This document shows, in pieces, positions 8,742-63,244 of a stretch of 64,000 nt of DNA. The notes beneath the pieces were generated by a model that saw only the letters and a program-made list of their open reading frames with translations, was not told the DNA's origin and searched no databases. Within the stretch, counting starts at the first letter, position 1. Each line of letters opens with the position of its first letter. Source of the stretch: Ignavibacteriota bacterium (GTDB lineage: Bacteria > Bacteroidota > Ignavibacteria > Tepidaquicellales > OLB5); NCBI GenBank assembly GCA_003820375.1, contig RPQH01000006.1:8861-72860 (forward strand), given 5' to 3'. The position numbers and the translations under genes are program-made.

Positions 8742-8749
8742 ATATATTT

Positions 8750-8795: not shown

Positions 8796-8819
8796 AATAA
8801 CAATAAGGAGAAAAACAAA

Positions 8820-12077: not shown

Positions 12078-12185
12078 TGATAATAAATTCTAAATGTGAA
12101 ATTCATTAGAATTATTTTTTGTGCTGGGTGGAAATCTGCCCAGCACAATTTCACAAACTTTATAAAATTTATATAAGTCTAAAAC

Positions 12186-33751: not shown

Positions 33752-33771
33752 TTCGTTTTAATTAAAATAAT

Positions 33772-34989: not shown

Positions 34990-35027
34990 GGTTTGCCTGC
35001 AATCAGGGCAATTAGAATATAACAGCT

Positions 35028-38155: not shown

Positions 38156-38200
38156 ATAAGAAATCACATAACATAAATTTTTAACCTTAAATAATTTTCA

Positions 38201-39265: not shown

Positions 39266-39278
39266 CAAAAAATTTACA

Positions 39279-40379: not shown

Positions 40380-40399
40380 CCTTAAAATTAAATTTTAAT

Positions 40400-41173: not shown

Positions 41174-41193
41174 TATATATTTCTAATTAATAA

Positions 41194-45829: not shown

Positions 45830-47170
45830 TTAAAAGGATTTTTCTTCCTTTTGAAATTCCTTGCCGATTCCATTCAGTAAGGTTTGAAGTTTTATTTTTT
45901 TCTCTTTAACGGCAAAAGTCCTGATTGAAGCGTATTGCATTACATTAACTATCATCGCACCGGTTAGTTCATATTTAATGGCTATCTGCTCTAAATTAAT
46001 TTCTTCATCAAGCTTAAGTTGGAAAGGTATGCATTTATTCCAGAGCTGTAAACGGTCATTGGCGTCGGGTTTTGGGAAATGTACTATTGTATTAAATCTT
46101 CTTGTAAATGCTTCATCTATGTTTGATTTAAAATTAGATGCAAGTATTATCAAGCCCTGGAAGTCTTCCACTTTTTGAAGAAGGTAAGAAACTTCCTGGT
46201 TGGCATATTTATCATGTGCATTTGATACATTTGTGCGTTTGGCAAATAATGCATCAGCTTCATCAAAAAATAATATCCATTCCTTATTCGTTGCTTTATC
46301 AAAAACCTTATTTAGATTTTTTTCTGTTTCACCGATATATTTTGAAACAACTAAGGACAGGTCAATACGGTAAACCGGTTTATTGAATTCTTTTCCGAGC
46401 AGTGAAGCAGTAAGTGTTTTACCTGTACCGGGCGGACCATAAAATAATACCCTGTATCCGGGTTTAATTTTAGGAGAAAGATTTTTATCAGAATACAGCT
46501 TATCGTGATGTTCGAGCCAGTATTTGATATCACAAAGAAGGTCTGAAGTTTGCGTGTGTATTATAAGGTCTTTCCATTCCATTCTTGTTGTGAGCAGCTT
46601 AGCGGGGAAATCAGGACTGAAGGACGGACCGGGCATATTTCCTGTCAAGAAGAATTCTATCCATTCGGGAGCAAGCACCAACCTCCCACTCATAGCAGGT
46701 TCACCTTCCTTCATACTCTCGAGCCATAGGATACCATTTTTATGGAAGAAATGATTTTGAGAAAAGTATTGTTGAACCTCAATCCTTTTTTCAATATCAT
46801 TTCCTGCCAAAATAAACTGAACCGTTTCGCCTGTTGGCAGCATACCGCGATGATTACCGCTTTTAACACCACCGAACTCGGGAAAATCCCCTCCATCAGG
46901 TAAAAATTCCTGGATGATTGAATCAAAATAACCTGGAATAATATTTGGTATTAAAGCAAGCAGAAAAATAATTTTTTCATTTGAATCAAGTTCAAAACTA
47001 TCTATGTGAATGGAGTGTTCTTTAATAAAATAATTATTGTTAAAAATGTAATGCTCAGAATGATTTTCATTTTGTGCTAATTGAAAGTAATCTGCAAGCC
47101 TGTTCTTAATAATGCTTTTAAAGAGTTCTAATAATTGTGGTATGTTTTTATTCATGTATATTGTTTGCAT
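45830..47170 (-). CDS. eCIS-associated AAA+ ATPase (Afp15/Pvc15-like)
   Basis: 446 aa. A non-AAA N-terminal domain, then 'VLFYGPPGTGKT' (Walker A) and 'ILFFDEADALF' (Walker B). Its context is inside a contractile-injection locus. Confidence 0.8.
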   Translation of the reverse strand: MQTIYMNKNIPQLLELFKSIIKNRLADYFQLAQNENHSEHYIFNNNYFIKEHSIHIDSFELDSNEKIIFLLALIPNIIPGYFDSIIQEFLPDGGDFPEFGGVKSGNHRGMLPTGETVQFILAGNDIEKRIEVQQYFSQNHFFHKNGILWLESMKEGEPAMSGRLVLAPEWIEFFLTGNMPGPSFSPDFPAKLLTTRMEWKDLIIHTQTSDLLCDIKYWLEHHDKLYSDKNLSPKIKPGYRVLFYGPPGTGKTLTASLLGKEFNKPVYRIDLSLVVSKYIGETEKNLNKVFDKATNKEWILFFDEADALFAKRTNVSNAHDKYANQEVSYLLQKVEDFQGLIILASNFKSNIDEAFTRRFNTIVHFPKPDANDRLQLWNKCIPFQLKLDEEINLEQIAIKYELTGAMIVNVMQYASIRTFAVKEKKIKLQTLLNGIGKEFQKEEKSF

Positions 47171-47309: not shown

Positions 47310-47867
47310 CTATTTTGAAAATAGGATCAATGGTTTTGGATTTAAAAGTTTAGCTGTGCAAGTATCTATATCTGCACCGTCGTTTACTGTATATTTTAAC
47401 TCAACTTTATGCTTTGTGAAAATTGCACCACGATCCTTATATTTTTCCTTGGTAATTACTCCACTACCTTCGATTGTGAAATTGCTTACTTTACATAAAT
47501 CAATGGTGATAGTATCATTGGTTACACTTCCATATACCTTTTGACGGATACCATAAAAATTATCAAAACAAATCTTTGAACCTTCGTTCAAGCATGAAAC
47601 AACTACTTTATATGTAGAAGATCCATTTAAAGTGCTGTTTTCAAAACAAGTCAGTGGTCCCGTGACTTTTTCGCAAGGATTTTGCGGAATATTTTCGGAA
47701 TCTGCCTTTTCTTCTGCTTCCTGTTCATAAATATCATTTGGCTGATTTATTGTCAGCTTTGGCTGGAAAAATAATGAACTGCCATTATTCTTTTTGGCTT
47801 TTGAGAATAACTGCCCATAATTTTTTTGAGTTTTAAAAGAACCTATATGCTCAAAAATTGTGTTCAA
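47310..47867 (-). CDS. small Cys-containing protein carrying only the shared N-terminal leader motif (candidate eCIS cargo)
   Basis: 185 aa. Residues 33-53 read FFQPKLTINQPNDIYEQEAEE, followed by a beta-rich region of about 130 aa with 6 Cys. No DUF4157 core and no HExxH. Confidence 0.55.
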   Translation of the reverse strand: MNTIFEHIGSFKTQKNYGQLFSKAKKNNGSSLFFQPKLTINQPNDIYEQEAEEKADSENIPQNPCEKVTGPLTCFENSTLNGSSTYKVVVSCLNEGSKICFDNFYGIRQKVYGSVTNDTITIDLCKVSNFTIEGSGVITKEKYKDRGAIFTKHKVELKYTVNDGADIDTCTAKLLNPKPLILFSK

Positions 47868-47906
47868 ATATTTAAGCGGTCATACATGTTTAACTTTTTT
47901 GTTGTT

Positions 47907-49031
47907 TTATTTGCACTTTGAAGCATCACCTGATCCATAACCAAAGCATGACTTTTCACAAGCATCTGCTAAATTACCATGCCCAAATAAACGCCATTCT
48001 GTCAAATGAACTATCTCATGTAAAATTGTTGATGCAAGAGGACCACATAAATTATTATTCAGAGCATTAGGATAAATATTTACAGTTTGTGTCAAATATC
48101 TAGAAGCCATACCACAATCATCTCCTGATTGCTCACAATCAATGTTTAATCCATCAAATTCATTCAATACTTCGTCCTTTAAAGAATCGCTTCTAATGCA
48201 ATTACTATAAAACACCTTATTAAATGCGAGTTTTACAGCAGAAATTACATTGTCTTTTACATATGGATTCTTTTCACATTCATTATATGTAACATTGAAT
48301 GAATATAATTTAGTATGTAATGGTTGGGTAGGAACTGTGGGATTTGATAAGGAACGCCGGTAATCGCGATTAAGCAATCCACCATATCCTCCGCCCTGTC
48401 CTAATGGTGTAATAAGTTGGCGTTGTAGATACTCTAAAGGTTTATTAGTTTGCTGCACAACATGTGTCAACTCGTGTCCTATCAGCTTTTTCCCGGTATT
48501 AGTCTCAGGTGCATACTGCTTCTCACCAAACACTATATTATTACCTGAAGTATATGCCAGTGCATTAATACTTTGTGCAGATTTCTCTGCTTCTGAACCT
48601 GTATGTACCCTCACATTAGAAAAATCATATCCAAATCTTGGCTCAAAAAAACTGCGTGTGGATGAGTCAAGTGATTTACCTGATGATGAATTTAATACAT
48701 CATGTACAATTTGCGGAGCTGTTGATGCTTCAATGCTTCCAGCTTCTTTTCTCTGCAGTTTTTCTTTTTCCTCTTTACACAGATTACATTTTCTCTGAAT
48801 AGAACTATTTGCAGGTTTAAAGAAAGTATTTCTATTAACATCTTTATCTGTCATTCTCATTACTTTATCAGCCATTGCATCTGCTTCCTGCTCATAAATG
48901 TCATTAGGTTGACTTACTTTTAGCTTGGGCTGAAAAAACGAAGTATTATCTATACTCCTGTTATTTTTAGAGCATTTTAAACAACATTTTTTTGGATCAA
49001 CTGGTACTAATATTTTAGTTGCAACTTGCAT
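47907..49031 (-). CDS. DUF4157 ('eCIS core domain') metalloprotease-like protein with a second C-terminal HExxH domain (candidate effector)
   Basis: 374 aa. Leader FFQPKLKVSQPNDIYEQEAD. DUF4157-type block 'SGKSLDSSTRSFFEPRFGYDFSNVRVHTG..A..SAQSINALAYTSGNNIVFG...GKKLIGHELTHVVQQ'. C-terminal Cys-rich domain with 'ILHEIVHLTEW'. Confidence 0.8.
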   Translation of the reverse strand: MQVATKILVPVDPKKCCLKCSKNNRSIDNTSFFQPKLKVSQPNDIYEQEADAMADKVMRMTDKDVNRNTFFKPANSSIQRKCNLCKEEKEKLQRKEAGSIEASTAPQIVHDVLNSSSGKSLDSSTRSFFEPRFGYDFSNVRVHTGSEAEKSAQSINALAYTSGNNIVFGEKQYAPETNTGKKLIGHELTHVVQQTNKPLEYLQRQLITPLGQGGGYGGLLNRDYRRSLSNPTVPTQPLHTKLYSFNVTYNECEKNPYVKDNVISAVKLAFNKVFYSNCIRSDSLKDEVLNEFDGLNIDCEQSGDDCGMASRYLTQTVNIYPNALNNNLCGPLASTILHEIVHLTEWRLFGHGNLADACEKSCFGYGSGDASKCK

Positions 49032-49115
49032 AAGTTTTAAAACCTTACTAAAATTTCTTATTTTAGATTGTCAATTATTATTGTGATGAATAAGTATATT
49101 AAATCACATAAAAAA

Positions 49116-50279
49116 TTATATCACTCCGAATGAAATTTCAGGAAGTATTGTAATATTATCTAAGTTTACTCCCGGTATATCCATTTCATTTGTATAAATA
49201 TAATTCGCAATTAAATTATTGTTAGCATCAAAAAATGCCTGATCATAATACCAGGGTGCTACTATTGTTAATACGTTTGGTCCCTTTCCTTGAAAAGAAA
49301 CTGCTAATAGCTCATTATGTAAAGCATTATATTTATATTTTCCGTACCAATTATGAACATTAACGGTTTTTCCCCTTATCCTTTCTTTCATAGTGATTCC
49401 TACATAACCTCTTGCAAATCCTGAAGATGCTCCAAAAATCAAAGAAGCTAATTGTGATAATCCCAACCTCTTCCCTAATACCGTTGTTGCAACTCCAGCA
49501 AGTGCTGAAACTAAACCTGTACCAATAGCATCTCTTTTCCAATCAGTATTAAAATTTTTTACTGAACTTAAATCAACATTTGCATATTGAATTAAGCACG
49601 TTGAGTCATACGAGGCTATACGAATAAAAGGATTATACCAATTTACTGCTTCGTCCCCACAAGATCTAAAAATGGCATTAACAACTACTTTATTCTGCTG
49701 TAAAACATGTGTCAATTCATGAGCAATCAATTTCTTCCCAGTATTTGTTTCTGGTGCATACTGCCTATCCCCAAACACTATGTTATTTCCAGATGTATAA
49801 GCTAGTGCATTAATTGATTGTGCAGACTTTGCAGCTTCAGAACCTGTATGTACTTTTACATTAGAGAAATTATATCCAAATCTTGGCTCAAAAAAACTGC
49901 GTGTAGACGAATCAAGTGATTTACCTGATGATGAACTCAATACGTCATGCACTATTTGCGGAGCTGTTGTTGATTCACTGCTGCCTGATTCTTTCCTTTG
50001 CAGCTTTTCTTTTTCTTCCTTACATAAATTGCATTTCCTTTGTATTGAATTACCGGAAGGTTTAAAGAAAGTATTTTGATTATTAACATCTTTATCTGTC
50101 ATCCTCATCACTTTATCAGCCATTAAGTCTGCTTCCTGCTCATAAATGTCATTAGGTTGATTTACCTGTAGCTTCGGCTGAAAAAAATATGGATTACTAT
50201 TCTCTTTTGTGCGAGAGAATAATATTGAATTATTCTTGCTTGATTTTTCAGGATCTATGTGTTTAGTTACAGTTTCCAT
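49116..50279 (-). CDS. DUF4157 ('eCIS core domain') protein with an unrelated C-terminal domain (candidate effector)
   Basis: 387 aa. Residues 32-195 are nearly identical to the 47907-49031 product, including 'LIAHELTHVLQQ'. The C-terminal 190 aa or so are unrelated and contain a hydrophobic Gly/Ala-rich stretch (GTGLVSALAGVATTVLG...LIFGASSGFA). Confidence 0.8.
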   Translation of the reverse strand: METVTKHIDPEKSSKNNSILFSRTKENSNPYFFQPKLQVNQPNDIYEQEADLMADKVMRMTDKDVNNQNTFFKPSGNSIQRKCNLCKEEKEKLQRKESGSSESTTAPQIVHDVLSSSSGKSLDSSTRSFFEPRFGYNFSNVKVHTGSEAAKSAQSINALAYTSGNNIVFGDRQYAPETNTGKKLIAHELTHVLQQNKVVVNAIFRSCGDEAVNWYNPFIRIASYDSTCLIQYANVDLSSVKNFNTDWKRDAIGTGLVSALAGVATTVLGKRLGLSQLASLIFGASSGFARGYVGITMKERIRGKTVNVHNWYGKYKYNALHNELLAVSFQGKGPNVLTIVAPWYYDQAFFDANNNLIANYIYTNEMDIPGVNLDNITILPEISFGVI

Positions 50280-50338: not shown

Positions 50339-50641
50339 TTATTTCCCGGCTTTTGCCATCAGCCAGCACATAATTATCCATTGGAAAGCACTAAACCAGG
50401 CAATAACCAGGGCTGTTAAAAAATAATCAAGCAGCCACCAGAATTCGAATAATTTCAACCGGTATATTGCAGTTAATGCAAAAGCCACCCAGAATCCCAG
50501 ACAATAACCGCAGTTTAGTAGCGAACCGATAAAAGTATTTTTACTTATAAACCATTCCCGTAAAGTTTTAAATAACTGTGATTCAGCTATTGTAAAGGAT
50601 ATTGCAGCATTAACAAATGAAATCAGAATTATTTCATTCAT
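50339..50641 (-). CDS. small integral membrane protein (DUF1360-like)
   Basis: 100 aa with three hydrophobic segments. 'LLNCGYCLGFWVAFAL' resembles the CxxC-W block of DUF1360 proteins. Confidence 0.45.
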   Translation of the reverse strand: MNEIILISFVNAAISFTIAESQLFKTLREWFISKNTFIGSLLNCGYCLGFWVAFALTAIYRLKLFEFWWLLDYFLTALVIAWFSAFQWIIMCWLMAKAGK

Positions 50642-50870: not shown

Positions 50871-52337
50871 TTACCATTCAACAATTATATGTTTTTTCAT
50901 CCAAGGTAATTTTATATAAGAAAATCCCCAAGGCATTTTATCAATCAATATATCCCATCCTTTTTTTTCAACCTGAAGCAGCCAGTGATCATCTAAAAAT
51001 GATAATTTTCCATTTCTTTTGAGGAACGAATCTCTCAATCCGCTAGCTGTTGTATTTTTTAATGCTTTCCAATGCCCTATTACTGATAGAAGTAAGTCAT
51101 TTGTTTCGTTTTTTTCAAAATCACTTAATTTAATTACTGCAGGTAACGAGTTGTCAACTTCATATCCGCAGATTATCTTATTCAGTAACAGATCGAACTC
51201 CGGATACTCCTCCACTCCTGTAATTAAGTATTGCGTAAGTGCAATTGCTCTTTGCTGTAATTCAATATTTTGCCATTCGTTTTTTTCAGTATATCCACAA
51301 TTTTCGAAAAAGAGTGGTAAGAAAGAATGTAATATTACTAAACCACTATTTGAGATATACCAGCTATGCTCATCGCTCGATGTCTTACTCTGCTTTTCAT
51401 GGGCTTTGTTTTTTCCAAAATCAGCTGTTGTCAAATCTTTTTTCCCGGTTGTAATTCTGTGTTCCTGAATGTATTTAGAGCTTTTTTTGATAACATCTGC
51501 TGTTTCTTTACTGAGTTTATTTGAATTATTTTCAGTGTATAAAATAATCTGCTCTATTTCCTGCAAAGAAAGGTTGGAGATAATGTTCTGACCAAACGCC
51601 TGTTTAATTTCTGTTTGAACATCCTCTTTATTTTCCAGCTTATCACTCAACAGCTCGAAAATTTCTATAGCAGTCTTAAAAATTAACCCGGTTATTTTTG
51701 TATCACTATATTTCAAATATCTTAATATTTTTTTCCAATCGGATAAAGTTTTTATCTCAATTTTATTATCAAAAAGTCTCAAAATAAACTCCTCAACTAT
51801 ATTGTCTCCAAATTGGAAAATAAATCTATCACGAACTTTTTGCTCAGATTTAAATAGTGTGAAAAGTTTGTTAAAAAAACCTTCATCATGTTTTTCAATT
51901 ACCTTAATAATCAATTTCTGTAATTCAGTAATATCTATATTAGATCTACTCCATGGCAAATCTCCTGTTTTGAGAAAATGTAAGATAGTATGTTCATCAT
52001 TTAACTTCTGCGCAACGAATTTAATATTAGCTATAGGATTAAGCATATTCGACGTGCAGGAAATTTTATCAAGATAGCGTTCAAATTCATAAATGACCTT
52101 ATCAACTAATCCATTCTTCCAGTTAGAATAATTAATTACTCCTGCGTCAATTTCCAATTTTTCTATTTGAATAATATTTTCGCCGAAGTTTTTCCTATTA
52201 AATAAATTTTCTATTGCCGGAATTAAAACTTGTTTGCATAAATCTGCCAATTCATTTTGAAATGAAAAAGCATCTATAGAATTTTGCATTTCTACTTCTA
52301 AAATTTCTTTACCAATTTTATGAACCTGAACCGTCAT
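50871..52337 (-). CDS. contractile-injection-system tape-measure-like protein (Afp14 position)
   Basis: 488 aa. The N-terminal pattern 'ILEVEM.....AF..Q.EL........L.PA.E.....K.......IQIEKLEIDAGVI' matches my recollection of proteins annotated as CIS tape measure. Overlaps the upstream gene by 4 nt. The assignment rests partly on position. Confidence 0.5.
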   Translation of the reverse strand: MTVQVHKIGKEILEVEMQNSIDAFSFQNELADLCKQVLIPAIENLFNRKNFGENIIQIEKLEIDAGVINYSNWKNGLVDKVIYEFERYLDKISCTSNMLNPIANIKFVAQKLNDEHTILHFLKTGDLPWSRSNIDITELQKLIIKVIEKHDEGFFNKLFTLFKSEQKVRDRFIFQFGDNIVEEFILRLFDNKIEIKTLSDWKKILRYLKYSDTKITGLIFKTAIEIFELLSDKLENKEDVQTEIKQAFGQNIISNLSLQEIEQIILYTENNSNKLSKETADVIKKSSKYIQEHRITTGKKDLTTADFGKNKAHEKQSKTSSDEHSWYISNSGLVILHSFLPLFFENCGYTEKNEWQNIELQQRAIALTQYLITGVEEYPEFDLLLNKIICGYEVDNSLPAVIKLSDFEKNETNDLLLSVIGHWKALKNTTASGLRDSFLKRNGKLSFLDDHWLLQVEKKGWDILIDKMPWGFSYIKLPWMKKHIIVEW

Positions 52338-55300
52338 GCTATAAAATGATTATCGAAAGTCATTCCGGTATTTTTTTTATTTTTGTAAATCTTATCAGAA
52401 ATAGTATATTTTACAGCAGAATTACATTTCTCATCGATATCATTTATAATTTCCAGTTCAACATTTATCGGCATTTTACCTGATGGAGGAGTAAGTTTGT
52501 TCTTCACAAAATCTACTTCAATATCTTTTGTATAAAAAGTAAGTTTTATTTTTCCCTGAATTATATTCCAATTAAATCCTGTTGCATATTTATTTTTGGC
52601 TGATAACATCAAATAGGAGTTTTGCCAACTACCTTCACGTGTTGTTGTATTTCTTATATCAGTTATTTCTTTTATTTCAATATTGAAATCAGCATTAGGA
52701 GACAAAATAATCAATGTAACTTCTTTTTCTTTTACCGAAGGAAGTGTATAGTTAATTAAGTACGAATATTGTTCCTTCTTATATGTCTTAACTAAATCAA
52801 TTTTTACTTTTATTGTATCAATTATTTCTGCTTCTGATTTTAGAATATTAACAGGTTTTAAATTATCCGGTTCTAATACAAATATTTCTTGATTAATACA
52901 CTTCATAATTGTTAATTTTTCGACCGGTAATTTAAATTTTATTTCTTCTTCATATTTATCTTCACATTCTCTATTTTTAACTACTAATTGAATTACATTA
53001 CCTGTTTCGTTTGCTTTAAATTTAAAATTTTCAGGTGCAATAGAGCGGGAGAAAATTTTATTTTTGAAATACCATTCATAAGATGCACTTTCAATAGTAT
53101 CTGTCGAATTATTTATAAGCGATATCTCGACTTTTTCATTATCTGTTTTTTCAACTTTATAAGCAAAATTTGCTTTTGGTTTAGGAACTATTGTTATAGT
53201 TTTTGTATCAGAAATTCCCGAATTATTCTTAAATGCTATTTTATGCGTACCCGGTATTAGATTTCCCGGAATAAAATAAAAGTTTTCATTCTCATATCTG
53301 ATGTTTTCGTCTTTAGCAGAATTATCATCAACTAAAAAAGAACCTCCTTCCTTTGGATCTGTTTGCAATTTAATTCCAATTTTCGAATCACTGCATATGG
53401 TTTCTTTATCGATTTCAAGTGTTGGTTTGATGGCTTCCTCTTTATGTGTTTCCTGCAATATATAAGCAACCGGCTGGCAATCACTGCAGCAAACATAAGG
53501 AATATAAAAATCAGCAATCACCATTCCATCAGTTAATTCAAAACGCGATTCCCGGGGTGGCTTTTCTATAATATCAATTATTTTTTTCTTCTTTTCTTCC
53601 GGCAATTCTTTACAATCATCCATCATATTATTCATAGCATCCTTAAGCTTTAAATAAATGTCAGGATCTTTATATAGAGTTGCAATTTGAGTTAACCGGG
53701 TATTAAATTCCATCTCATCCGGCTTAACCTCGGGCTTAAGAAGTGCGTGGAAATTTGTTAGTAGTAAATTACCGAGTTCTTTATTTATATACAAAGTCCC
53801 GGGGTCAATTAACCTGTTTCTTCTTTCTTCATGATAAACAAGAATAAATGTTCCACCTTTAGGTACACCTGCTTTATGTTCCAGTCCGGGATGCTTCCTG
53901 AAATAGTTTATAAAGTTTTTTGCAAGACGGTATTGTGCGGTTCTCCTTATGTATTCGTTTTTTAACGATTCCAGTCTTTCTATAAAGCATGACTGGTTCA
54001 ATAATTGTATGTTCTTGACAAATATATTTAACAATCCTTGTTCTTCCTCATTTAGAGGTTGAACAGAAGTTTTGCTCATAATTAAAGGTATATAAAAGTC
54101 ATTTATCAGACGATGGTTAAAATTAATAGTTTCACTTAACTTCGCATACATGGATTTTATTAATGTGATATTAATTTCTGCGAGTTCGTGTTCAGTTAAT
54201 TCTTTTATTAAATCTTCAACATTGTCTATAAAATCAAAAAAGTAATGATATAATTTTAACCGGTCATTGCTAATATTGCTAAGATTAACCGGATTTTCAA
54301 AAACTTCTTTCAAATTCTCGGAATAATATTTCCCAATAGTAGTTTCCTGAGTTTGTCTGAATAATCTTTCAAATGTATTTCCTTTTTGGTAATTTTTTAA
54401 TGCCTGGTATTCATTAACCATTGAAGAAATATATGGTTTATTCACTTTAAAATTCAGAGCATTATTCATTGAATGAAAAATAAATATATCTATATTTTCT
54501 TTTGCCGCAGAAGGGTCACTTTCAGACTTGGCAGTTGAAGTATCAGAATTTAATACAGGAGGATTAAATACATAACTTATTTGTGGCTCATATTTTATAT
54601 TTGCAACAAAACTGTAGGCATCATGGATTTTGCAGATAAATTCTGTAATCAGAGTACGGTAATCACTTTCTAAATCTTCGATCACACATTTCGGTTCTTC
54701 TCCTTTAACTAACGCACCAATATAATCGGCACTTAAAGCAGCAGTTTCAAATGGCAAATTAAACTGCAACTGTAGTGATTTTACTACATTTAATGCCGTT
54801 GAAATATATTTGCCGATATGCCCTTCGATTCTGAAAAAATTAAATCGCTCTAAATCATAGAGCAGAGGACTTACTATATTAGGAGCTGTGCAATAAATTG
54901 AAGAATAATAACTCAAATTAAACCTCTCATTGCCGCGTTTAATTTTATCATAATTCCAATATCGGTATAGTTCATTGCCCGGGTCAACAGTGTTGTAATA
55001 ATAAGGGATACAGCGATCGGATAAATAAGTGTAGCCGTTCCGGCTTGGTGTAATTTTAACAAATTTCTTCTCGAAATCTGCAATAGAATCAAATGAAACT
55101 TCCTGTATAAGCAAGCGTATTCTGGTAAAAAGCAGTCGTACTTCCTCAAGCTTTTCTTCTTGATTATTATATAAGGGGGTATAAATAAAATATTCACGGT
55201 ATTTGCTCTTTATAAAAGGATTGGTGTTTACAGATGCCTCACCAAGCATCAGGTGTAATGGAAATCTCATTTCATCTGAGCAGCACCAGGAAGTGACGTG

Positions 55301-56278
55301 AAAAACCTTATTCTTGAATTCATAATATGCATTTAATATATCGTCAATAAAATCATAGAAATATTGAATTAAAACAGGTTGTGAACTGATAATTTTATCT
55401 CTTAAACTTTTAAATTGTTCGAAAACCTGACTGAATGGATTATTAGGTTCATCTTTTAACAGATAATAATAATTTACATAACAATAGTTCAAAACTTCAG
55501 CAATGCCTTTAAGTTTTGCATCATCTACCAGCCCGGCGAACGCCTGCAAGACATCATCAGCAGATTTAAGATCCTGGTCAGGCACGTTATATCTCTGCAA
55601 TTCGATATGATGCAGTGAGGGACTAACGGAGGATTTAATATCGGGAAGAGGTTTCTCATACTGTTTTTTTAAACTGTTTAAAATTGTTTTCTTTACTAAT
55701 AATGCTTTTACATCAAAATCCATTCTGCTTCCCTTATCATTACAATCATTATTATCGCAATTTTTTAAATTTACTTCTTCTGTTTCAAGGAAAAGGACTA
55801 CCGCGTATTTATCAAGATTCAGTTCTGAAATTATTGAAGCAGATTTTTTTTCATCAGTGTTTAGATTATCAAATTCCTCAGATGTAATCAGTTGAAATAT
55901 CTTTCCTTTATATATATCATTATAACTATCATTGACTTTTTCTTTATAAAAAGGAACAGCGGTATTATCATTATCCCGGCATGTGCAAATAAGATTTAGG
56001 TGTTCCGGAAAGCTGCGGGAATTATAGGGCATATAATGCCGGAATTCTGTATTGCAGAATGTCATAATAAATCCTTGAGAGGTTATCCCGCATCCTTTTG
56101 AAATCTTTATTACATCATTACCTGCTGTAATTTCCAGACCGCAGACAATTCCCATTCCTATGATTTTATTTTTCGTCAGACGGTCCTGTTGTTCCAAATA
56201 ATTTATTAGTGTATTTAAGTGACGGTCACTTAATACCTGGTTAGGTTCAAAAACAGGAAATGTATTGATAATATCCAT
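52334..56278 (-). CDS. large eCIS structural protein (Afp13 position) with C-terminal PKD/Ig-like domains; possible target-recognition component
   Basis: 1314 aa. Its N-terminus, 'FPVFEPNQVLSDRHLNTLINYLEQQDRL...GMGIVCGLEI', seems to me common in eCIS loci. The C-terminal 'PKANFAYKVEK...ISLINNSTD...YEWYF' is PKD-like. Confidence 0.5.
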   Translation of the reverse strand: MDIINTFPVFEPNQVLSDRHLNTLINYLEQQDRLTKNKIIGMGIVCGLEITAGNDVIKISKGCGITSQGFIMTFCNTEFRHYMPYNSRSFPEHLNLICTCRDNDNTAVPFYKEKVNDSYNDIYKGKIFQLITSEEFDNLNTDEKKSASIISELNLDKYAVVLFLETEEVNLKNCDNNDCNDKGSRMDFDVKALLVKKTILNSLKKQYEKPLPDIKSSVSPSLHHIELQRYNVPDQDLKSADDVLQAFAGLVDDAKLKGIAEVLNYCYVNYYYLLKDEPNNPFSQVFEQFKSLRDKIISSQPVLIQYFYDFIDDILNAYYEFKNKVFHVTSWCCSDEMRFPLHLMLGEASVNTNPFIKSKYREYFIYTPLYNNQEEKLEEVRLLFTRIRLLIQEVSFDSIADFEKKFVKITPSRNGYTYLSDRCIPYYYNTVDPGNELYRYWNYDKIKRGNERFNLSYYSSIYCTAPNIVSPLLYDLERFNFFRIEGHIGKYISTALNVVKSLQLQFNLPFETAALSADYIGALVKGEEPKCVIEDLESDYRTLITEFICKIHDAYSFVANIKYEPQISYVFNPPVLNSDTSTAKSESDPSAAKENIDIFIFHSMNNALNFKVNKPYISSMVNEYQALKNYQKGNTFERLFRQTQETTIGKYYSENLKEVFENPVNLSNISNDRLKLYHYFFDFIDNVEDLIKELTEHELAEINITLIKSMYAKLSETINFNHRLINDFYIPLIMSKTSVQPLNEEEQGLLNIFVKNIQLLNQSCFIERLESLKNEYIRRTAQYRLAKNFINYFRKHPGLEHKAGVPKGGTFILVYHEERRNRLIDPGTLYINKELGNLLLTNFHALLKPEVKPDEMEFNTRLTQIATLYKDPDIYLKLKDAMNNMMDDCKELPEEKKKKIIDIIEKPPRESRFELTDGMVIADFYIPYVCCSDCQPVAYILQETHKEEAIKPTLEIDKETICSDSKIGIKLQTDPKEGGSFLVDDNSAKDENIRYENENFYFIPGNLIPGTHKIAFKNNSGISDTKTITIVPKPKANFAYKVEKTDNEKVEISLINNSTDTIESASYEWYFKNKIFSRSIAPENFKFKANETGNVIQLVVKNRECEDKYEEEIKFKLPVEKLTIMKCINQEIFVLEPDNLKPVNILKSEAEIIDTIKVKIDLVKTYKKEQYSYLINYTLPSVKEKEVTLIILSPNADFNIEIKEITDIRNTTTREGSWQNSYLMLSAKNKYATGFNWNIIQGKIKLTFYTKDIEVDFVKNKLTPPSGKMPINVELEIINDIDEKCNSAVKYTISDKIYKNKKNTGMTFDNHFIA

Positions 56279-56280
56279 TT

Positions 56281-59200
56281 TTATAGTTTATTAAATGTTC
56301 CTAAAATTGTTTTACCAAGCAATAAGGGATTACTACTTTCTTTGTTTTCATCACAATTATGTAAGGTCGCTAAAATGTATTCACTATGGAGATTTTTAAG
56401 TATTTCCAATATAGCATTATTAGCGTCTCTGAATTTACCTTCTTTATCCAGGTCTGCTGTATCAGAATAATAATCAGCTATTGATTCAAGCCAGTTTTTA
56501 TATCGTACTTCAAACTCCCGAAGCATTTCATTACTTAGCCAGCATATTTTTAACATTACATGTGCTGGAGCTTCTTCCCGTATCTTATTTTCAAAATATT
56601 CTCTGAATGCCATGCTGTCAAAGTGCCCGGGCCAATATGGCATTATCACGGATATGCGGTATGAATAGGGATCTGCATCACATATACATTCACAATTATG
56701 AAGACAAACTTCCATTAAATCGAATGCTGGTTTACGGGGGCGTAATAATATATGTTCAATTAAATGAAGTCCAACTGGATCATTACATTCTCTTTTAAAT
56801 TCTTCTGTAAATTTTTTGATATCATTATTGGCGTCTTCTTCATTCGTGTAAGTTTTTTCGCTGGTTAATATGTTTGCGAGTTTAAAATTTTTATTGTTAT
56901 TATCCCATGTGTAATTGTCAGAATTTTTTCCAAGAATAACAGCGTCCAGTGCTTCTTTCCTGGCATTTTCTTTATTTTCATATTTTCCGGAAAGCATTTT
57001 TATTCCATCCAATGATGTGATTGAAAAAGAGTAGTAACATTTTAAAACTTCCTTTTCATTTTCATCTACGCTTTCTTCGTTACAATATATTTCAATATTC
57101 TTAATACAATACAAAAATCTCCTTGTGTAATCATTAATACCTGTCAGCAAACTGATTCGCCTTTCAAGTCCGGAAACATTATCTGTGTCCCATATCCCGG
57201 ATCTATCTATTGTAAAGTCATTATTTTGCGGAAGGTAATTAAAGCTCTTGCTCCGGGAACTGCTAACCTGGTCATATATTTTCAATGTACGTATCTTCGC
57301 TGCTAGTAATTCAGCAGGGTCAATATTTTCTTCTGTTTTCTCTTTATAATTAATTCTATACATCATCAATGCATAATCACTGAATGATTCGGAAAAACGC
57401 GCTAACAAGTGATCAAGGAAACGGCTGCGTCTTTCTTCAAAAAGATCCTTTGATTCGTATAAAATTTGCCATTTGTTTTTTGGCTCATGAACGGAATCCG
57501 GATTGTTTATTATTTGCTCTAGCAAAGCATTTCCATTTACAGTTTTATAAATATGCTTAACTTCTTTTATTCCACTGAGAAATTGTGCATAATAAGTATT
57601 TTTGATTTCTTCGACTGAAAATAACCTATGAGAGTGAGTTAATTGTGAAAAAAAGTCAGCAAGTAATTGTTCAAAAAACATCAAGTACGCTTTTAACTGT
57701 CTTTGACTGGCAATTCTTTGAGCAGTTACGGGAGTAGTTAACCCATATTCCCCGGTACCGTAAGTAGGAGGTAAATCGTATTGAACAGGATAGTAGCTTT
57801 CTGTATCTCTTTTTTTACCGATTGGAACCGGAATATCATCCTGTAATCCTGATAACTTAGCACGTGAACGTTGTGCATGAAGGAGCAATATGGTATCCTT
57901 TACTTCATCATAACGTGCAATAAAAGGAAACTGGTTTTTGAATAAAAGTATCTTTGACCTGTCTTTACTAAGGACCGGTTTGCACATAGGAGAAATATTC
58001 ATGCACCACTTTTTACCTGTATAATTTTTCATGGGCATTCCATCTTTGCCATATTTAGTCATTGTAAAATTCCTTATGGCAACAACTCCTTCGATATCCA
58101 TCAATAAATTAATAATATCCGATGTAATAATTTTTGAACGCAGTTGTGTTTCTTCTAGCTGAGTGTTTTCGATAAAACCATGTTTCAAAACAACTCCGTT
58201 AAAAATTCCATCAACTGGTACTTTTTTCTCAATTAGTTCTTTAAGTGAATAAAAACCTACGTTTGGGTTTAGATAATTTTCAACAATAAAAAATATTTCC
58301 GCTTGAATTTTATCAATATCGGTATCCGGCTTAGCATCAACATCAAAACAGAAGGCGATTTTCTCATCTTCAATTGTAGTTACTGAGGTAAAATCTTCAC
58401 ATAAGTTACGGTGTTCATGAAGGATCTTGATAGCACTTTGAATAATTTGTCTTGCTTTCCTGATCTTATTAAAATACTTTTCAAAAATACCAGCAACAAA
58501 CTGTTTATCATTGAACATTTTTTGCACATCATCAACTGTTACATTTTTTTCTTCCGGTTTTAAGGGCATTGTAATATTAAACTCTTTAACAGAATTGTTA
58601 GTGAGCTTTAAAGATTTACATTTCCAATGATTTTCACTTTCCTCTATAATTACCGATAATATATTTACCTTGTCTTTAGCATTTTCGGCAAAGCTAAAAT
58701 CTGCATCCTTCCATGAAGGAAGTTCAATTGAAAACAAAAATTCTCCCTGGGAAATATTTCCGTTAGCAGGATTTTCAATAATTATTTCACCGTTATTAAG
58801 ATCTCCAAACCCATCTGTATATTCAAGGTCAATCAGTACTTTGTATAAACCGGAAATATATAGCGGCAAACCTGTATTGTTATAGGTTAATTTATCTTTT
58901 TTGCAATCAGCATAAATATGTACTTCGTTAACCGGCAAGGGATTTTTATTATCGTCATACCAGACTTTATCTGCTATCAGCCATGCATTATGTATTCCAT
59001 CCAGATCTATCAATAATTTCCTGTAATCATTTATTGTCAGGGGATTATTTGTCAGAATTCTTTTCGCAGTGAAAAAAGTTTGATTATCAACAATATTTCC
59101 ATCTTCTTTGGTTAGTAGATCATTGATATCAAAACCACACCTGTAACCAAGTTCGCTTATTGCATAACATAATACTTCTAGAATGGTGATACCTGGGTCA

Positions 59201-59337
59201 TGAGAATTGAAGTCGGTCCAGAACTCCGAACCCAGATTCTCTATATAATTAATTCCTTCCTTACGCAAAAAATAATAATCCTGCGAAGGAGGAAGAGTAC
59301 TATTCTTTTCTATTATTAATTTTTCATCCATTAGCAA
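56281..59337 (-). CDS. baseplate wedge protein (Afp12/Cis12 position)
   Basis: 1018 aa. N-terminal 'FWTDFNSHDPGITILEVLCYAISELGYR' is typical of baseplate-assembly (gpJ/gpI-like) proteins. Overlaps the upstream gene by 7 nt. Confidence 0.55.
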   Translation of the reverse strand: MLMDEKLIIEKNSTLPPSQDYYFLRKEGINYIENLGSEFWTDFNSHDPGITILEVLCYAISELGYRCGFDINDLLTKEDGNIVDNQTFFTAKRILTNNPLTINDYRKLLIDLDGIHNAWLIADKVWYDDNKNPLPVNEVHIYADCKKDKLTYNNTGLPLYISGLYKVLIDLEYTDGFGDLNNGEIIIENPANGNISQGEFLFSIELPSWKDADFSFAENAKDKVNILSVIIEESENHWKCKSLKLTNNSVKEFNITMPLKPEEKNVTVDDVQKMFNDKQFVAGIFEKYFNKIRKARQIIQSAIKILHEHRNLCEDFTSVTTIEDEKIAFCFDVDAKPDTDIDKIQAEIFFIVENYLNPNVGFYSLKELIEKKVPVDGIFNGVVLKHGFIENTQLEETQLRSKIITSDIINLLMDIEGVVAIRNFTMTKYGKDGMPMKNYTGKKWCMNISPMCKPVLSKDRSKILLFKNQFPFIARYDEVKDTILLLHAQRSRAKLSGLQDDIPVPIGKKRDTESYYPVQYDLPPTYGTGEYGLTTPVTAQRIASQRQLKAYLMFFEQLLADFFSQLTHSHRLFSVEEIKNTYYAQFLSGIKEVKHIYKTVNGNALLEQIINNPDSVHEPKNKWQILYESKDLFEERRSRFLDHLLARFSESFSDYALMMYRINYKEKTEENIDPAELLAAKIRTLKIYDQVSSSRSKSFNYLPQNNDFTIDRSGIWDTDNVSGLERRISLLTGINDYTRRFLYCIKNIEIYCNEESVDENEKEVLKCYYSFSITSLDGIKMLSGKYENKENARKEALDAVILGKNSDNYTWDNNNKNFKLANILTSEKTYTNEEDANNDIKKFTEEFKRECNDPVGLHLIEHILLRPRKPAFDLMEVCLHNCECICDADPYSYRISVIMPYWPGHFDSMAFREYFENKIREEAPAHVMLKICWLSNEMLREFEVRYKNWLESIADYYSDTADLDKEGKFRDANNAILEILKNLHSEYILATLHNCDENKESSNPLLLGKTILGTFNKL

Positions 59338-62300
59338 TTAGTAAGTGGCTCAATTATATGTTTGGTTTTTGTTTCTTCGTTAAAATAAGAAATTAGTACT
59401 GAACGGGAGCTGGAAGCAATTGCTTCCTCAATATCCCGCTTTTCCTCCAGATGATTTACCCCATTGCGGTTTATAATATGATGCATTTTAAAACATGCAA
59501 TGTAATTAACATAAGGCCTTTCTTCAACAAAATTTAAAATTGAACTTTTGACAATTTTCCCATTAAATGAAATTTCATTACCTTCATCATATGCCCAGGG
59601 ACAAAGAAATTTTTCTATTTCAATATTAAGTAATTGCAGGTAATAAGATTCATCCAGGTTATCATAAAATTTCACTTTAAAATCAAACTGGATCTCTTCA
59701 AATTGAGGATTTCTGACATGAAGCTTTATAAATGGAGAAGTAATTGATTGCAAATATTTTTCTATTTTAATCAGCATACCTATTGGTGTACAAGGTCGTA
59801 AAGGATCAACCTTAGTTTTGTTTCTTAAATCAGGAATAGGAATGATCGTCACATGTCCCGGAAGATTTTCACAAAATATTTCTTCTTCCTGCTTTAAATA
59901 AAAACCGGAATGATTAAGACATTTAACTTTGTATATATCTGGATATTTTTCAAGTATAATATGTTCATAATCCCAGATAGAAATTGCCCTCTGTTTATGT
60001 CGCAGCCGTTCACTGGTCCTGATGTAGAAATGTTCGTCGCTCTCTTTTGTTCTTCCACCATAAGAATCAAAGGGCTGGGTAATATTTTTTATTGCAGAAT
60101 CACTTATTAGTAATTTAGAAATGGCTTTTGAAGGGAGTACTTGCCTGAATTCAACGTGTTTAGATTCATCTTGTGCTAATTCAACTTTAGCTGCCTGTGC
60201 TGTTATTAATATCATTTTACATACTGCATCTGTACTTTTCTTTACGGCTGCTTTTATCCAATGAAGGTTATTTTCAAATGCTGTGGTTTGATTGCTTATA
60301 TCATACGGAAGTGATATTGTAACCACACCGGATTGAGTAAAGTTTTGAGTCCTGTCTATTATGAATTGTTTTTCAAATGGCTTCCAGAAATGATGTCCGG
60401 AAAGATAATACCATTCAACATTTTCCATAATTTTTAATGGATTTGAACTGCCTTCAGATACCTGAAATAAAATATTGACAACTGTGTTACTTGCTGCATT
60501 TTCAAGTCCTATAAACAATTCACCACTATTAATAATGTCCGGCAGCAGTGTGAATTTTTCAGTTGATTCTGTTCCCTGGATATCAGGTACTAACTGATAA
60601 TAGCCAAATGGGGTAAAATGATAAATATGATTGTTCTCGTTATCTGCTTTATTCAATGAGATATTTGCAGTTGCAGCATAATTTATTGAAAAGTCATTAA
60701 GAATAATTTCTTTTGCTGTCGGTATAGACGATAAGTTTACCTTGTAAACATTTTGGTCATTTAAACTAATTGTAGTACGGTTAATTTCGTTAACAACATT
60801 TTGAAGATGCGTTGTTAATGAATAATTATTATCAGCTAACTGCAGTTGTATAAATCCATCCAGTGATGTAGACTGAAGAGCTTCGTTTTTCTCAAAATTA
60901 ATTTTTGAAGGAATGAATGACACAGGAAAAATAGTTTTAGGTGATGAAAGCCTAAAATCATTCTTCCATTTTTGTTCTCTCAGATAATATACATTTGTTG
61001 ATAGAGCCGGAGATTTGTAGTTTTTCCAGGCAAAATTAAATTCTATCCAGTTTAAAGTTTTCTGGAAAGCTTCTCTGCTTCCAATATTAAAACGGGCATC
61101 TGCATCTGGTAAATCTCCAAATGGCTTGAAAGGTTTTGAAGCATCAATCGGACCGGAATTATTGCTCAGCATCAAATCCTTTATACCATTCACCTGTACC
61201 GAAATTTCTACTGATGATATTTTTTGATTACAAATTAAGGTATATGGTATTGCATTTTTGTCATCCTGGTTTAATATAAATTTTGCAAAAGGTAATGAAA
61301 CGTTCAGTTTTTCCTTATGAATTTTTTCTGAATACGGAACTACCGGAGGATCGCCCGGATTTAAAATAAATTTGAATTCAAGTGTCTTTGCTGACTGTAT
61401 CTTCACATTCAATCCATTTACTTTGTGCCAGTCTTTTTTTCCGGTTAATTTTACTTTAAAGCAGTCCAGTTTGACACCATTCAATAATTGATTAATTTCA
61501 TTTTCGAACTTAATTGATACCGTTATTATACGTTCACCTTCATTTAAATATAAAATATTGGATGCAATTCCAAAACCTGCTTCTGCATTACCTGCTTCAC
61601 GTGTATCTCCAAATGTGTACCAGCTATTATCTGCTGACATAATTTTAGCTCCCTGCCCGTCATCTGAATCTGCAATTTGTGATGCTATCAAAATATCTTT
61701 TGTATCATGCTTTATCTGCAGTGAATGTATTTTGCTGACTTTAGCTTTGTTAATGACAATATCTTCAGTAAGAGAATAGAATATTTCTTTTCCTGTTATA
61801 TCCTTTCCGCCTTTGAATAATGTATTTTTTTTCAAAAGATGTTGATTCTTTTGTTTCTGCAATTCAAATATCAGGTGTGCAAAATCAGGTTCTGGTTTTT
61901 GATTTTGAAGCCGGAGAACATCTTTATAATAAAAATCAAGATGCCTTTTTGAGTACGTATTTAAATGATCCTGAGAATAACGAAAGAGCTTTATAAATGT
62001 AAGAAATAATGTATAATGCGGTGTATGTTTTGGAAAATCTTTCAGGGTTTGGATAAATAACTCTTCAGCTTTTGTAACAAAAAATGAAATACCATAAAAT
62101 AAATTTTCTACCTGTGAGTTAAAGAGATTATGATTTATAATATAAATAATTTTTTCCTTTAAAACAGGAAATTCCGGAACAGTGAATGAGAATTCCAGGG
62201 GTTGGTTTGACTTCCACATTTCCGGCAGAGATTCAAAATCTGAAGAGTGAAACGAATTAACAGGTATCGGTGCATTATCTTCATCAATAACTGTAATCGA

Positions 62301-62828
62301 TTCATCAATAAGATTTAGCGTCGTTTTTATATAATCATAAAACCTGGTCTTTATCGTCATTATACTCTCTGAGAGTTTATTCTGAATAGTGACATTCAAC
62401 AGTTCTTTATATGAAAATTCATCCGGAATAAACCGGTACTGTTCATCAATCAGGTTCACCATTGAAAATATTAAATCAAACAGGAATTTAAATTGTTTCT
62501 TTGATTCTTCTTCAGAAGTGGATGTACTCTTAATCTTCTTGTAAAGAAGCTTTTGGTAATCGTAAATTGTACGAACTTCTATTTTTGACAATGTAGCCAG
62601 AGCTACACTAACATCCATTTTCATCAAATCTTCCCAGTCGCCGGAAAGATTATTATACTTGTCATAATAATTCAGGTAAGAAGCATATTTTTTCGCAAAT
62701 AATATCAGGTCAGCTTCATTTCGCTCATCAACATGAACATAACCGGGCAGAAGAGCTGCTATTACTCTATTTGTCTGGTTCAATCCCGAACGCTGAAGAG
62801 GTTTTTTATCTTTACAACTTTTACTCAT
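59331..62828 (-). CDS. baseplate wedge protein, baseplate-J/gp6-like (Afp11/Cis11 position)
   Basis: 1165 aa. N-terminal '...QRSGLNQTNRVIAALLPGYVHVDERNEADLILFAKKYA'. Near the C-terminus, 'RHKQRAISIWDYEHIILEKYPDIYKVKCL' resembles the conserved baseplate-J block. Overlaps gp25 by 4 nt. Confidence 0.6.
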   Translation of the reverse strand: MSKSCKDKKPLQRSGLNQTNRVIAALLPGYVHVDERNEADLILFAKKYASYLNYYDKYNNLSGDWEDLMKMDVSVALATLSKIEVRTIYDYQKLLYKKIKSTSTSEEESKKQFKFLFDLIFSMVNLIDEQYRFIPDEFSYKELLNVTIQNKLSESIMTIKTRFYDYIKTTLNLIDESITVIDEDNAPIPVNSFHSSDFESLPEMWKSNQPLEFSFTVPEFPVLKEKIIYIINHNLFNSQVENLFYGISFFVTKAEELFIQTLKDFPKHTPHYTLFLTFIKLFRYSQDHLNTYSKRHLDFYYKDVLRLQNQKPEPDFAHLIFELQKQKNQHLLKKNTLFKGGKDITGKEIFYSLTEDIVINKAKVSKIHSLQIKHDTKDILIASQIADSDDGQGAKIMSADNSWYTFGDTREAGNAEAGFGIASNILYLNEGERIITVSIKFENEINQLLNGVKLDCFKVKLTGKKDWHKVNGLNVKIQSAKTLEFKFILNPGDPPVVPYSEKIHKEKLNVSLPFAKFILNQDDKNAIPYTLICNQKISSVEISVQVNGIKDLMLSNNSGPIDASKPFKPFGDLPDADARFNIGSREAFQKTLNWIEFNFAWKNYKSPALSTNVYYLREQKWKNDFRLSSPKTIFPVSFIPSKINFEKNEALQSTSLDGFIQLQLADNNYSLTTHLQNVVNEINRTTISLNDQNVYKVNLSSIPTAKEIILNDFSINYAATANISLNKADNENNHIYHFTPFGYYQLVPDIQGTESTEKFTLLPDIINSGELFIGLENAASNTVVNILFQVSEGSSNPLKIMENVEWYYLSGHHFWKPFEKQFIIDRTQNFTQSGVVTISLPYDISNQTTAFENNLHWIKAAVKKSTDAVCKMILITAQAAKVELAQDESKHVEFRQVLPSKAISKLLISDSAIKNITQPFDSYGGRTKESDEHFYIRTSERLRHKQRAISIWDYEHIILEKYPDIYKVKCLNHSGFYLKQEEEIFCENLPGHVTIIPIPDLRNKTKVDPLRPCTPIGMLIKIEKYLQSITSPFIKLHVRNPQFEEIQFDFKVKFYDNLDESYYLQLLNIEIEKFLCPWAYDEGNEISFNGKIVKSSILNFVEERPYVNYIACFKMHHIINRNGVNHLEEKRDIEEAIASSSRSVLISYFNEETKTKHIIEPLTNC

Positions 62829-63244
62829 TTTATAATATCACTGCCTTCATTTTTGTAAAAAGGAAATACATAATTGTAACGTGTATTTTTACTTTGTATT
62901 GTGTAGTCAATACTTATGAGCACAATCCCTTGCAGTTCATTGCTTTCATCCAACTCTACTCCATTCAATTTAATACGTGGTTCATATAAATTAATTGTGG
63001 TTTTTACAAGGTCTTTTATATAAGTTTTGAATGTCGTAGAAAGAGATTCAAAAACAAGTTCATCCAGATTACAGCCATAATCAGGGCACATTACTCTTTC
63101 TCCTGGTCTTGTAGTAAGTAAAATATGCAAACTGCTTTCAATATCCTCCTCATCGCTCAGCATTTTTACATTTTTAGTATCTTTGTTGAATTCAGGAGGA
63201 AAGCTCCACCCTGTGCCAAGAAAGGATTTATGACCGTTTATCAT
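62825..63244 (-). CDS. GPW/gp25-family baseplate protein (Afp9/TssE-like)
   Basis: 139 aa. 'LGTGWSFP', 'SLHILLTTRPGERVMCPDYGCNLDELVFE' and 'YEPRI' are the classic gp25 pattern. Confidence 0.85.
   Translation of the reverse strand: MINGHKSFLGTGWSFPPEFNKDTKNVKMLSDEEDIESSLHILLTTRPGERVMCPDYGCNLDELVFESLSTTFKTYIKDLVKTTINLYEPRIKLNGVELDESNELQGIVLISIDYTIQSKNTRYNYVFPFYKNEGSDIIK

Follow-up and report, generated by a model that had tools for sequence, protein, structure and literature searches.

The cargo proteins Cgo1 (ALPR1_12695) and Cgo2 (ALPR1_12690) of AlgoCIS, an Algoriphagus extracellular contractile injection system (eCIS), fill the lumen of the injection tube (PMC8894135). A preprint dissected both proteins into an N-terminal domain, a DUF4157 domain, and a C-terminal domain; deletion of the N-terminal domain abolished loading while deletion of DUF4157 or of the C-terminal domain did not, the AAA+ protein Alg15 was needed for loading, and the loading sequence was described as not conserved between systems (bioRxiv 10.64898/2026.05.27.728243). 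How an eCIS chooses and loads its cargo is an open question that limits the use of these particles for programmable protein delivery. Here, we describe three tandem genes in a 64,000-nucleotide (nt) stretch of the genome of an Ignavibacteriota bacterium (GenBank assembly GCA_003820375.1, contig RPQH01000006.1, positions 8,861 to 72,860 of the forward strand; the whole stretch is called the window below). The three genes probably form a Cgo-type cargo array of an AlgoCIS-like eCIS, in which all three proteins share an N-terminal loading module and one is a natural cargo without DUF4157. This reading is carried by the gene context, by the homology of a short N-terminal motif to Cgo1, by the occurrence of DUF4157-less proteins with the same leader, and by purifying selection on the shared module.

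Like the cargo genes of AlgoCIS, the window genes lie in tandem in a Bacteroidota eCIS cluster that also contains an AAA+ ATPase gene. Two of the products, of 374 and 387 amino acids (aa), have the same architecture as Cgo1 and Cgo2, namely, an N-terminal domain that is disordered, DUF4157, and a C-terminal domain that varies, and in the 374-aa protein the latter contains a second HExxH, as it does in Cgo1 (PMC8894135). The leader motif is common to Cgo1 and all three window proteins. In contrast to AlgoCIS, there are three genes here, one of which (185 aa) wholly lacks DUF4157, and the C-terminal domains are unrelated to anything found. Linkers in the window proteins are short, whereas Cgo1 has long acidic repeats. 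Since the 185-aa protein is without the central DUF4157, it can be regarded as a variant of the Cgo-type cargo.

Two other described systems are comparable. Payloads of the PVC and Afp systems (Pdp1 and Pnf) also have a disordered N-terminal region that is needed for loading, together with a cluster-encoded AAA ATPase (Pvc15), but PVC payloads are without DUF4157, and PVC signals have no sequence similarity to the AlgoCIS N-terminal domain according to the preprint (10.64898/2026.05.27.728243). The PVC-metallopeptidase polymorphic toxins of Zhang, Aravind et al. (2012; PMC3482391) have the same constant N-terminal DUF4157 module with highly variable C-terminal toxins, several per genome; that description mentions neither a conserved motif upstream of DUF4157 nor leader-bearing proteins without the peptidase. 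A constant module with swapped toxins was already known; the widely conserved motif and the natural minimal cargoes are what is pointed out here.

The three open reading frames (ORFs) and their leaders have the following window coordinates:

47310..47867, minus strand: 185-aa candidate cargo gene with a TTG start; leader and an orphan 6-Cys domain, without DUF4157.

47907..49031, minus strand: 374-aa Cgo-type cargo gene; leader, disordered linker, DUF4157, and a Cys-rich C-terminal domain with a second HExxH.

49116..50279, minus strand: 387-aa Cgo-type cargo gene; leader, linker, DUF4157, and a C-terminal domain that includes a hydrophobic stretch rich in Gly/Ala.

47697..47771, minus strand: leader of the 185-aa gene; 25 codons, residues 33 to 57, FFQPKLTINQPNDIYEQEAEEKADS.

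48864..48938, minus strand: leader of the 374-aa gene; 25 codons, residues 32 to 56.

50112..50186, minus strand: leader of the 387-aa gene; 25 codons, residues 32 to 56.

A preliminary description of the window had placed a common N-terminal motif at residue 32 or 33 of all three products, and both the ORFs and the motif positions were exactly as claimed: the first residue of FFQPKL-x3-QPNDIYEQEA(D/E) is number 33 in the 185-aa product and number 32 in both the 374- and the 387-aa product. A degenerate DNA pattern for QPNDIYEQEA had three matches in the window, all at the three leaders (0 expected from 100 shuffles), and the three cargo ORFs were the sole matches in a six-frame scan of the window with the leader model. 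Resemblance between the 185- and 387-aa proteins is also seen N-terminal of the motif (HI..K..KN..LFS.K.N), so that the shared leader spans approximately residues 6 to 56 and extends beyond the 20 residues originally proposed. The leader DNA of the 185-aa gene has 75 to 77% nt identity to the other two leaders, with the peptide kept and differences that are mostly synonymous. Retention of the peptide despite 23 to 25% nt divergence points to selection rather than to a recent copy. Beyond the leader, residues 70 to 96 of the 374- and 387-aa proteins form another conserved unit, FFKP..(S)IQRKC..C.EE...LQRKE, which also occurs in many relatives. An FF-x-Q-x-K pattern recurs in this way (FFQPKL, then FFKP...IQRK), and the 185-aa protein retains the first unit only.

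The same motif is present in Cgo1. In the parts of the supplement of Danov et al. (2024) that were covered, a 498-aa DUF4157 protein of A. machipongonensis PR1 was taken as Cgo1 on the strength of its matching length. Its residues 28 to 56 read FFGVQAKLETGKPGDKYEQEADAMADKVV, and the leader model matched residues 32 to 53 at 40.8 bits. Since the motif lies in the N-terminal domain of Cgo1, it is the one sharply conserved element inside the experimentally defined loading region. In published work, the loading signal is no more than a disordered N terminus, "not conserved" from one system to the next; the Cgo-type N-terminal domain is found here to hold a sharply conserved motif of ~25 residues. 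A homologue search with a Cgo2-like 1,209-aa Lunatimonas protein gave no Algoriphagus entry among the matches. The three window proteins are probably loaded, and what the loader reads may be the motif, a putative loading determinant, and not the disordered tail beside it.

The gene context is consistent with this placement. The cargo genes belong to one co-directional minus-strand block that encodes gp25, a Baseplate_J-like protein, two large proteins, a contractile injection system tape-measure protein, a 100-aa hydrophobic protein, the three cargo proteins, an AAA ATPase, and a C39-like peptidase. Intergenic gaps among the cargo genes and the ATPase gene are 39 to 139 nt, all on one strand. 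The eCIS genes that flank the array are as follows:

52334..63244, minus strand: upstream eCIS baseplate block, with gp25 (62825-63244), a Baseplate_J-like protein of 1165 aa, and proteins of 1018 and 1314 aa; homologues occur in related loci.

50871..52337, minus strand: eCIS tape-measure protein (Cis14/Alg14-like); PF19268, E 1.4e-111.

45830..47170, minus strand: AAA+ ATPase (Cis15/Alg15-like), the presumed cargo loader; PF00004, E 4e-29.

The window is 100% identical to a contig of JGI metagenome 3300027722, so that the organism is uncultured. A scan of 185,579 species-representative genomes with the leader, among which the window's own genome was absent, yielded 68 related loci. Nearly all were from Bacteroidota (Mucilaginibacter, Chitinophagaceae, Parafilimonas, Ferruginibacter, Niabella, and Cyclobacteriaceae), with a few from Ignavibacteria and one from Terrimicrobiaceae. 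The tape-measure gene was upstream of leader genes in 45 of the 68 loci, and homologues of the window ATPase (E down to 1e-168) were directly downstream of leader genes in 43. Where both markers were present (29 loci), the slot between tape measure and ATPase held 57 of 64 leader genes, with 1 to 7 per slot, an arrangement shared with cgo1 and cgo2 of AlgoCIS. The largest array in the set was found in Mucilaginibacter sp. OK268 (locus L010, ~1955 to 13794), with eight consecutive leader-bearing ORFs between tape measure and ATPase, two of them without DUF4157.

A total of five intact leader genes without DUF4157 were identified among the 68 loci, having no PF13699 by either our own model or Pfam:

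L005:9908-10792: leader-only gene, 294 aa.

L010:6667-8055: leader-only gene, 462 aa.

L010:12898-13794: leader-only gene, 298 aa.

L028:4706-5623: leader-only gene, 305 aa.

L034:9935-11617: leader-only gene, 560 aa.

Of these five genes, four have eCIS genes in their locus and are placed upstream of the AAA ATPase gene; the tape-measure gene is also seen in L005 and L010. A 525-aa database protein (P0064) likewise has the leader and is without DUF4157. There is no HExxH at all in four of the five leader-only locus genes or in the 185-aa protein. The preliminary description of the 185-aa protein as a leader on an unrelated 6-Cys domain was borne out by searches of Pfam (PF13699 included), NCBIfam, and PADLOC, which gave no match, and by a search for a DUF4157 remnant in every frame, which found none. 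Since the 185-aa gene has the motif without DUF4157, the motif can exist on its own. The earlier proposal of a separable tag stands in part: the motif is detached in the 185-aa gene, the five locus genes, and P0064, but it accompanies nearly every DUF4157 and is not independent of DUF4157 in general, and the claim that it is "not merely part of DUF4157" is unproven. With a widely conserved motif and natural cargo-slot fusions of it to domains other than DUF4157, the loading signal can be tested directly, and the leader offers a simple sequence probe for new eCIS effectors that DUF4157-based searches miss.

In five further loci (L018, L022, L054, L058, and L062), a short leader-only ORF is succeeded by a DUF4157 ORF in a different frame; these short ORFs were taken as front halves of frameshifted DUF4157 genes and discarded. 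The frameshifted cargo genes of these loci are pseudogenes or assembly errors and mimic leader-only proteins.

The 374- and 387-aa genes share, in addition to the leader, a DUF4157 module and a diverged direct repeat:

48441..48671, minus strand: DUF4157/eCIS_core (PF13699) of the 374-aa protein; residues 121 to 197, E 8.4e-32, 109.6 bits, HELTH at 186.

49689..49916, minus strand: DUF4157/eCIS_core (PF13699) of the 387-aa protein; residues 122 to 197, E 2.9e-30, 104.7 bits.

48445..48957, minus strand: diverged direct repeat, copy 1; 516 nt, 82.9% identity to copy 2 (blastn).

49690..50204, minus strand: diverged direct repeat, copy 2 (blastn).

Both PF13699 domains (gathering threshold, 22 bits; "eCIS_core" is the current Pfam name for DUF4157) have the HExxHxxQ core. 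The two proteins are ~88% identical over residues 32 to 194, and the likeness stops directly after HELTHV(V/L)QQ. Pfam and the alignment thus agree with the earlier observation that the HExxH core lies inside the shared part and is followed by complete divergence. An estimate by eye of 80 to 90% nt identity fits the measured 82.9%, but the genes had also been called near-identical, and at ~88% protein identity they are merely similar. Over codons 32 to 199 of the shared module, synonymous divergence (dS) is 0.95 and nonsynonymous divergence (dN) is 0.064 (ω, 0.07), and the module is under strong purifying selection. The longest identical run between the two genes is 33 nt and lies within the leader. 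A dS of 0.95 and so short an identical run indicate that the two paralogues are old and have undergone no recent cassette swap. The suggestion that repeated DNA allows toxin cassettes to be exchanged was not upheld, given the age of the copies: recent exchange has left no trace at the locus (82.9% nt identity; dS, 0.95), no orphan cassettes were seen, and the design itself had been described in 2012 (PMC3482391).

A constant N-terminal module, unrelated C-terminal domains, and a sharp junction after HELTHV(V/L)QQ are traits of polymorphic toxins. No cognate immunity genes were found directly downstream of the cargo genes, where the gaps of 39 to 139 nt are too small and the only other ORF called, of 52 aa, overlaps the start of the ATPase gene. 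Many PVC-type toxins are without immunity genes (Zhang et al. 2012, PMC3482391).

Under the cargo-array reading, each protein would open with a loading module made up of a basic, disordered tail of ~30 residues and then FFQPKL-x3-QPND-x-YEQEA(D/E). This module would be the counterpart of the N-terminal domain of Algoriphagus Cgo1 and Cgo2, and the adjacent Alg15-like AAA+ ATPase would recognize it and feed each protein into the lumen of the tube. The 374- and 387-aa proteins would represent the standard leader-DUF4157-toxin arrangement, and the 185-aa protein would be a stripped-down cargo in which the leader core is joined directly to a small Cys-rich domain.

Several observations weigh against this reading. 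The motif is present in 172 of the 195 DUF4157 ORFs of the loci, and the remainder are contig edges or frameshift pieces. We also considered an unselected sample of 18 proteins from parts 4 and 11 of supplementary file 5 of Danov et al. (2024), in which DUF4157 toxin candidates had been chosen without regard to the motif; the motif or its C-terminal look-alike occurs in 16 of these 18. An AlphaFold2 (AF2) model of the 374-aa protein, built from a 27-sequence alignment, has a predicted local distance difference test score (pLDDT) of 87 to 95 for residues 41 to 60, with a helix at residues 45 to 59 (IYEQEADAMADKVMR). Near-obligate linkage to DUF4157 and an ordered helix are each compatible with an element that works within the metallopeptidase. 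Paralogues with both leader and DUF4157 are present in all loci that have a leader-only gene, so that DUF4157 could act in trans. In the same supplement parts, two Bacteroidota DUF4157 cargo candidates (of Niastella and Aquimarina) are without the EQEAD part and retain FF...QRKC only, which suggests that the helix may be dispensable for loading. The reporter fusions of the AlgoCIS study consisted of the N-terminal domain plus DUF4157, with no mapping inside the N-terminal domain, so that sufficiency of that domain alone is not established (10.64898/2026.05.27.728243). Comparison of the 185-aa protein with 5.8 billion proteins returned leader matches only (truncated DUF4157 proteins) and left its C-terminal domain an orphan; this domain is predicted to be all-beta, and its AF2 single-sequence model is unreliable (pLDDT, 39).

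In gluzincins, the third zinc ligand lies ~25 residues after HExxH, and an ExxxD-like signature is typical. The main rival to the cargo-array reading, a tentative possibility that need not exclude it, is that the leader helix is the third-ligand (Glu) helix of a minimal DUF4157 gluzincin, circularly permuted to the N terminus on a disordered linker. Loading would then be set by other N-terminal features (the basic tail and the FF...QxK units), and the 185-aa gene would have acquired its helix via recombination. As in gluzincins, the 374- and 387-aa proteins combine an HExxH helix with a conserved acidic helix (YEQEAD, ExxxD-like), the candidate Glu helix, and in some DUF4157 subfamilies such a helix is found ~27 residues after HExxH. 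In contrast to gluzincins, the helix of these two proteins precedes HExxH by ~130 residues, with a disordered linker between them, and zinc binding by it is putative. The published family signature is HExxHxxQ-E, with the Glu on a third helix (Zhang et al. 2012, PMC3482391).

The distribution of the motif bears on this rival in both directions. Among the 18 proteins of the unselected sample, the motif is confined to the N terminus in 9 independent proteins, and in another 7 a similar motif, ND..(G)LE.EAD.MG..A, is confined to a position ~25 residues after HExxHxxQQ; both versions are missing from 2, and no protein combines them. Proteins with the N-terminal version (the N class) have no conserved acidic residue after HExxHxxQQ, while D44, E47, E49, and A50 of the leader are invariant. 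The AF2 model of the 374-aa protein is likewise consistent with a structured role, with neighbors of the confidently predicted residues 41 to 60 falling below 50 (residues 1 to 37 and 73 to 93) and DUF4157 itself at 92 to 97. Against 1.84 billion proteins, a 32-column leader profile had 16,372 matching cluster representatives (E ≤ 1e-3); a search with a 45-aa leader profile gave just 14 short fragments and was not usable as a census. The best-scoring proteins have two to five matched motif stretches, some internal and some flanking one DUF4157 on both sides. Taken together, the commonness of the motif, its multiple copies, its post-HExxH counterpart, the HExxHxxQ-E signature, and the AF2 prediction point to the helix as a possible displaced element of the metallopeptidase.

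Other evidence disfavors a displaced ligand helix. The leader model matched the C-terminal "E.EAD.M" version only weakly (4 to 9 bits), so that homology of the N- and C-terminal versions is not established, and H143 in "VRVH," which is also invariant, could be a ligand. Many proteins have two to three copies of the motif (up to five matched stretches), some on both sides of a single DUF4157. The six DUF4157-less proteins described above (the five locus genes and P0064) retain the motif, including four locus genes in which HExxH is missing, as it is in the 185-aa protein. The N-terminal domain is required for loading even without DUF4157 (10.64898/2026.05.27.728243). Literature searches with the motif string and with DUF4157 together with circular permutation found nothing relevant.

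Two variations in motif placement were seen alongside these comparisons. In the supplement parts covered, DUF4157 proteins of the HEAWHVVQQ type (Westiella, Cellvibrio, Arsukibacterium, Owenweeksia, Bacteroides oleiciplenus, and Vibrio natriegens) and of a Streptomyces type are without the N-terminal motif and have ND..GLE.EAD.MG after HExxH. Among the database proteins P0021 to P0170 (e.g., P0025, P0029, P0050, and P0128), the motif occurs in two to five copies; in some, near-perfect tandem repeats of it precede a single DUF4157, and in some, copies directly behind HExxHxxQQ accompany the upstream ones. Giant proteins with two to three DUF4157 domains have one motif per domain.

The two readings could also be joined, although we regard this as unlikely: in a DUF4157 gluzincin that has undergone circular permutation, the N-terminal motif would serve both as the displaced Glu helix and as the handle for eCIS cargo selection. 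For leader-only proteins such as the 185-aa one, this would mean either direct reading by the ATPase or passage alongside a neighboring cargo, with their helix docked into its DUF4157 core. If true, such a dual purpose would provide a concrete mechanism for DUF4157, the most widespread eCIS-associated domain of unknown role, and a portable tag of ~25 residues that is valid across phyla.

It is very unlikely that the 185-aa ORF is a decaying remnant, in which the 5' end of a former DUF4157 gene was fused by deletion to unrelated sequence, rather than a functional cargo gene. Such an origin would be compatible with a C-terminal domain that has no homologue among 5.8 billion proteins or the 68 loci, with the TTG start, with a helix of which just the first half is kept ("EKADSENI" stands in place of "MADKVMRM"), and with the several short leader-only ORFs elsewhere that are frameshift halves. 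However, an open frame of 185 codons in DNA of 33% G+C content is improbable by chance (estimated at ~6e-7 per start), no DUF4157 remnant follows the leader in any frame, the leader peptide is conserved over many synonymous changes, and intact leader-only genes of 294 to 560 aa occupy the same slot in other loci. There is as little to commend a processing site, at which a DUF4157 peptidase (in cis, or in trans from a neighboring cargo) would cut near QPKL/QRK to free the toxin after delivery: DUF4157 has been proposed as an autoproteolytic releasing peptidase (Zhang et al. 2012, PMC3482391), the motif can flank DUF4157 on both sides, the C-terminal class has it between peptidase and toxin, and hQxK/hQRK units recur along linkers, but Cgo1 toxicity is independent of the HExxH motifs (PMC8894135), and in the N class a cut at the motif would remove only ~30 to 55 residues and leave the C-terminal domain unfreed.

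The C-terminal domains of the three presumed cargoes were described correctly at the outset as Cys-rich with a second HExxH (374 aa), Gly/Ala-rich and hydrophobic (387 aa), and 6-Cys (185 aa). The 374-aa protein has 8 Cys after residue 250, and the 185-aa protein has its 6 Cys at residues 65, 74, 92, 100, 125, and 170. Two features were located:

48006..48020, minus strand: second HExxH (HEIVH) of the 374-aa protein, residues 338 to 342.

49395..49532, minus strand: Gly/Ala-rich hydrophobic stretch of the 387-aa protein, approximately residues 250 to 295; Kyte-Doolittle 19-residue maximum of 1.64 at 251.

None of the three domains has a homologue among the ORFs of the 68 loci, they are mutually unrelated, and sequence searches of the PDB with all three proteins gave no match. 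A Foldseek search of the PDB with the 374-aa AF2 model gave a best E value of 1.7, which reflects a model that is mostly disordered. A resemblance by eye of the 374-aa C-terminal domain to an Anseongella protein ("ATILHE..H") was set aside, as BLASTP gave no confirmation. We might guess from sequence features that the 374-aa C-terminal domain is a small, Cys-rich, putative zinc protease and that the 387-aa C-terminal domain is membrane active, with possible membrane-inserting helices.

Two other genes of the minus-strand block adjoin the array:

50339..50641, minus strand: 100-aa hydrophobic protein between the tape measure and the first cargo gene; weak DUF1360 match (E 1.8e-4).

45216-45803, minus strand: stand-alone C39-like cysteine peptidase, directly after the ATPase gene; PF03412, E 1e-11, and PF13529, E 4e-10.

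Neither the hydrophobic protein nor the peptidase has a homologue in any of the 68 loci, and the peptidase is without the leader motif. A C39-like papain fold (Tox-PLC39) is among the PVC-type toxin domains (Zhang et al. 2012, PMC3482391), and the peptidase could be a leaderless effector or could be unrelated to the eCIS. A role as a leader-processing enzyme was set aside in view of its absence from the 68 related loci.

Among the related loci, leader genes in four 20-kb loci (L014, L018, L053, and L066) had no eCIS gene detected within 10 kb. L014, which shares its contig with L009 and overlaps it, thus has an eCIS nearby; L018, L053, and L066 may be cargo islands that stand alone. In the window, the eCIS block is adjoined by a plus-strand fatty acid beta-oxidation-like cluster at ~33700 to 43200 (thiolase, alcohol dehydrogenase, enoyl-CoA hydratases, and 3-hydroxyacyl-CoA dehydrogenase), which together with an aminotransferase gene (43298-44566, minus strand) marks the boundary of the eCIS locus.

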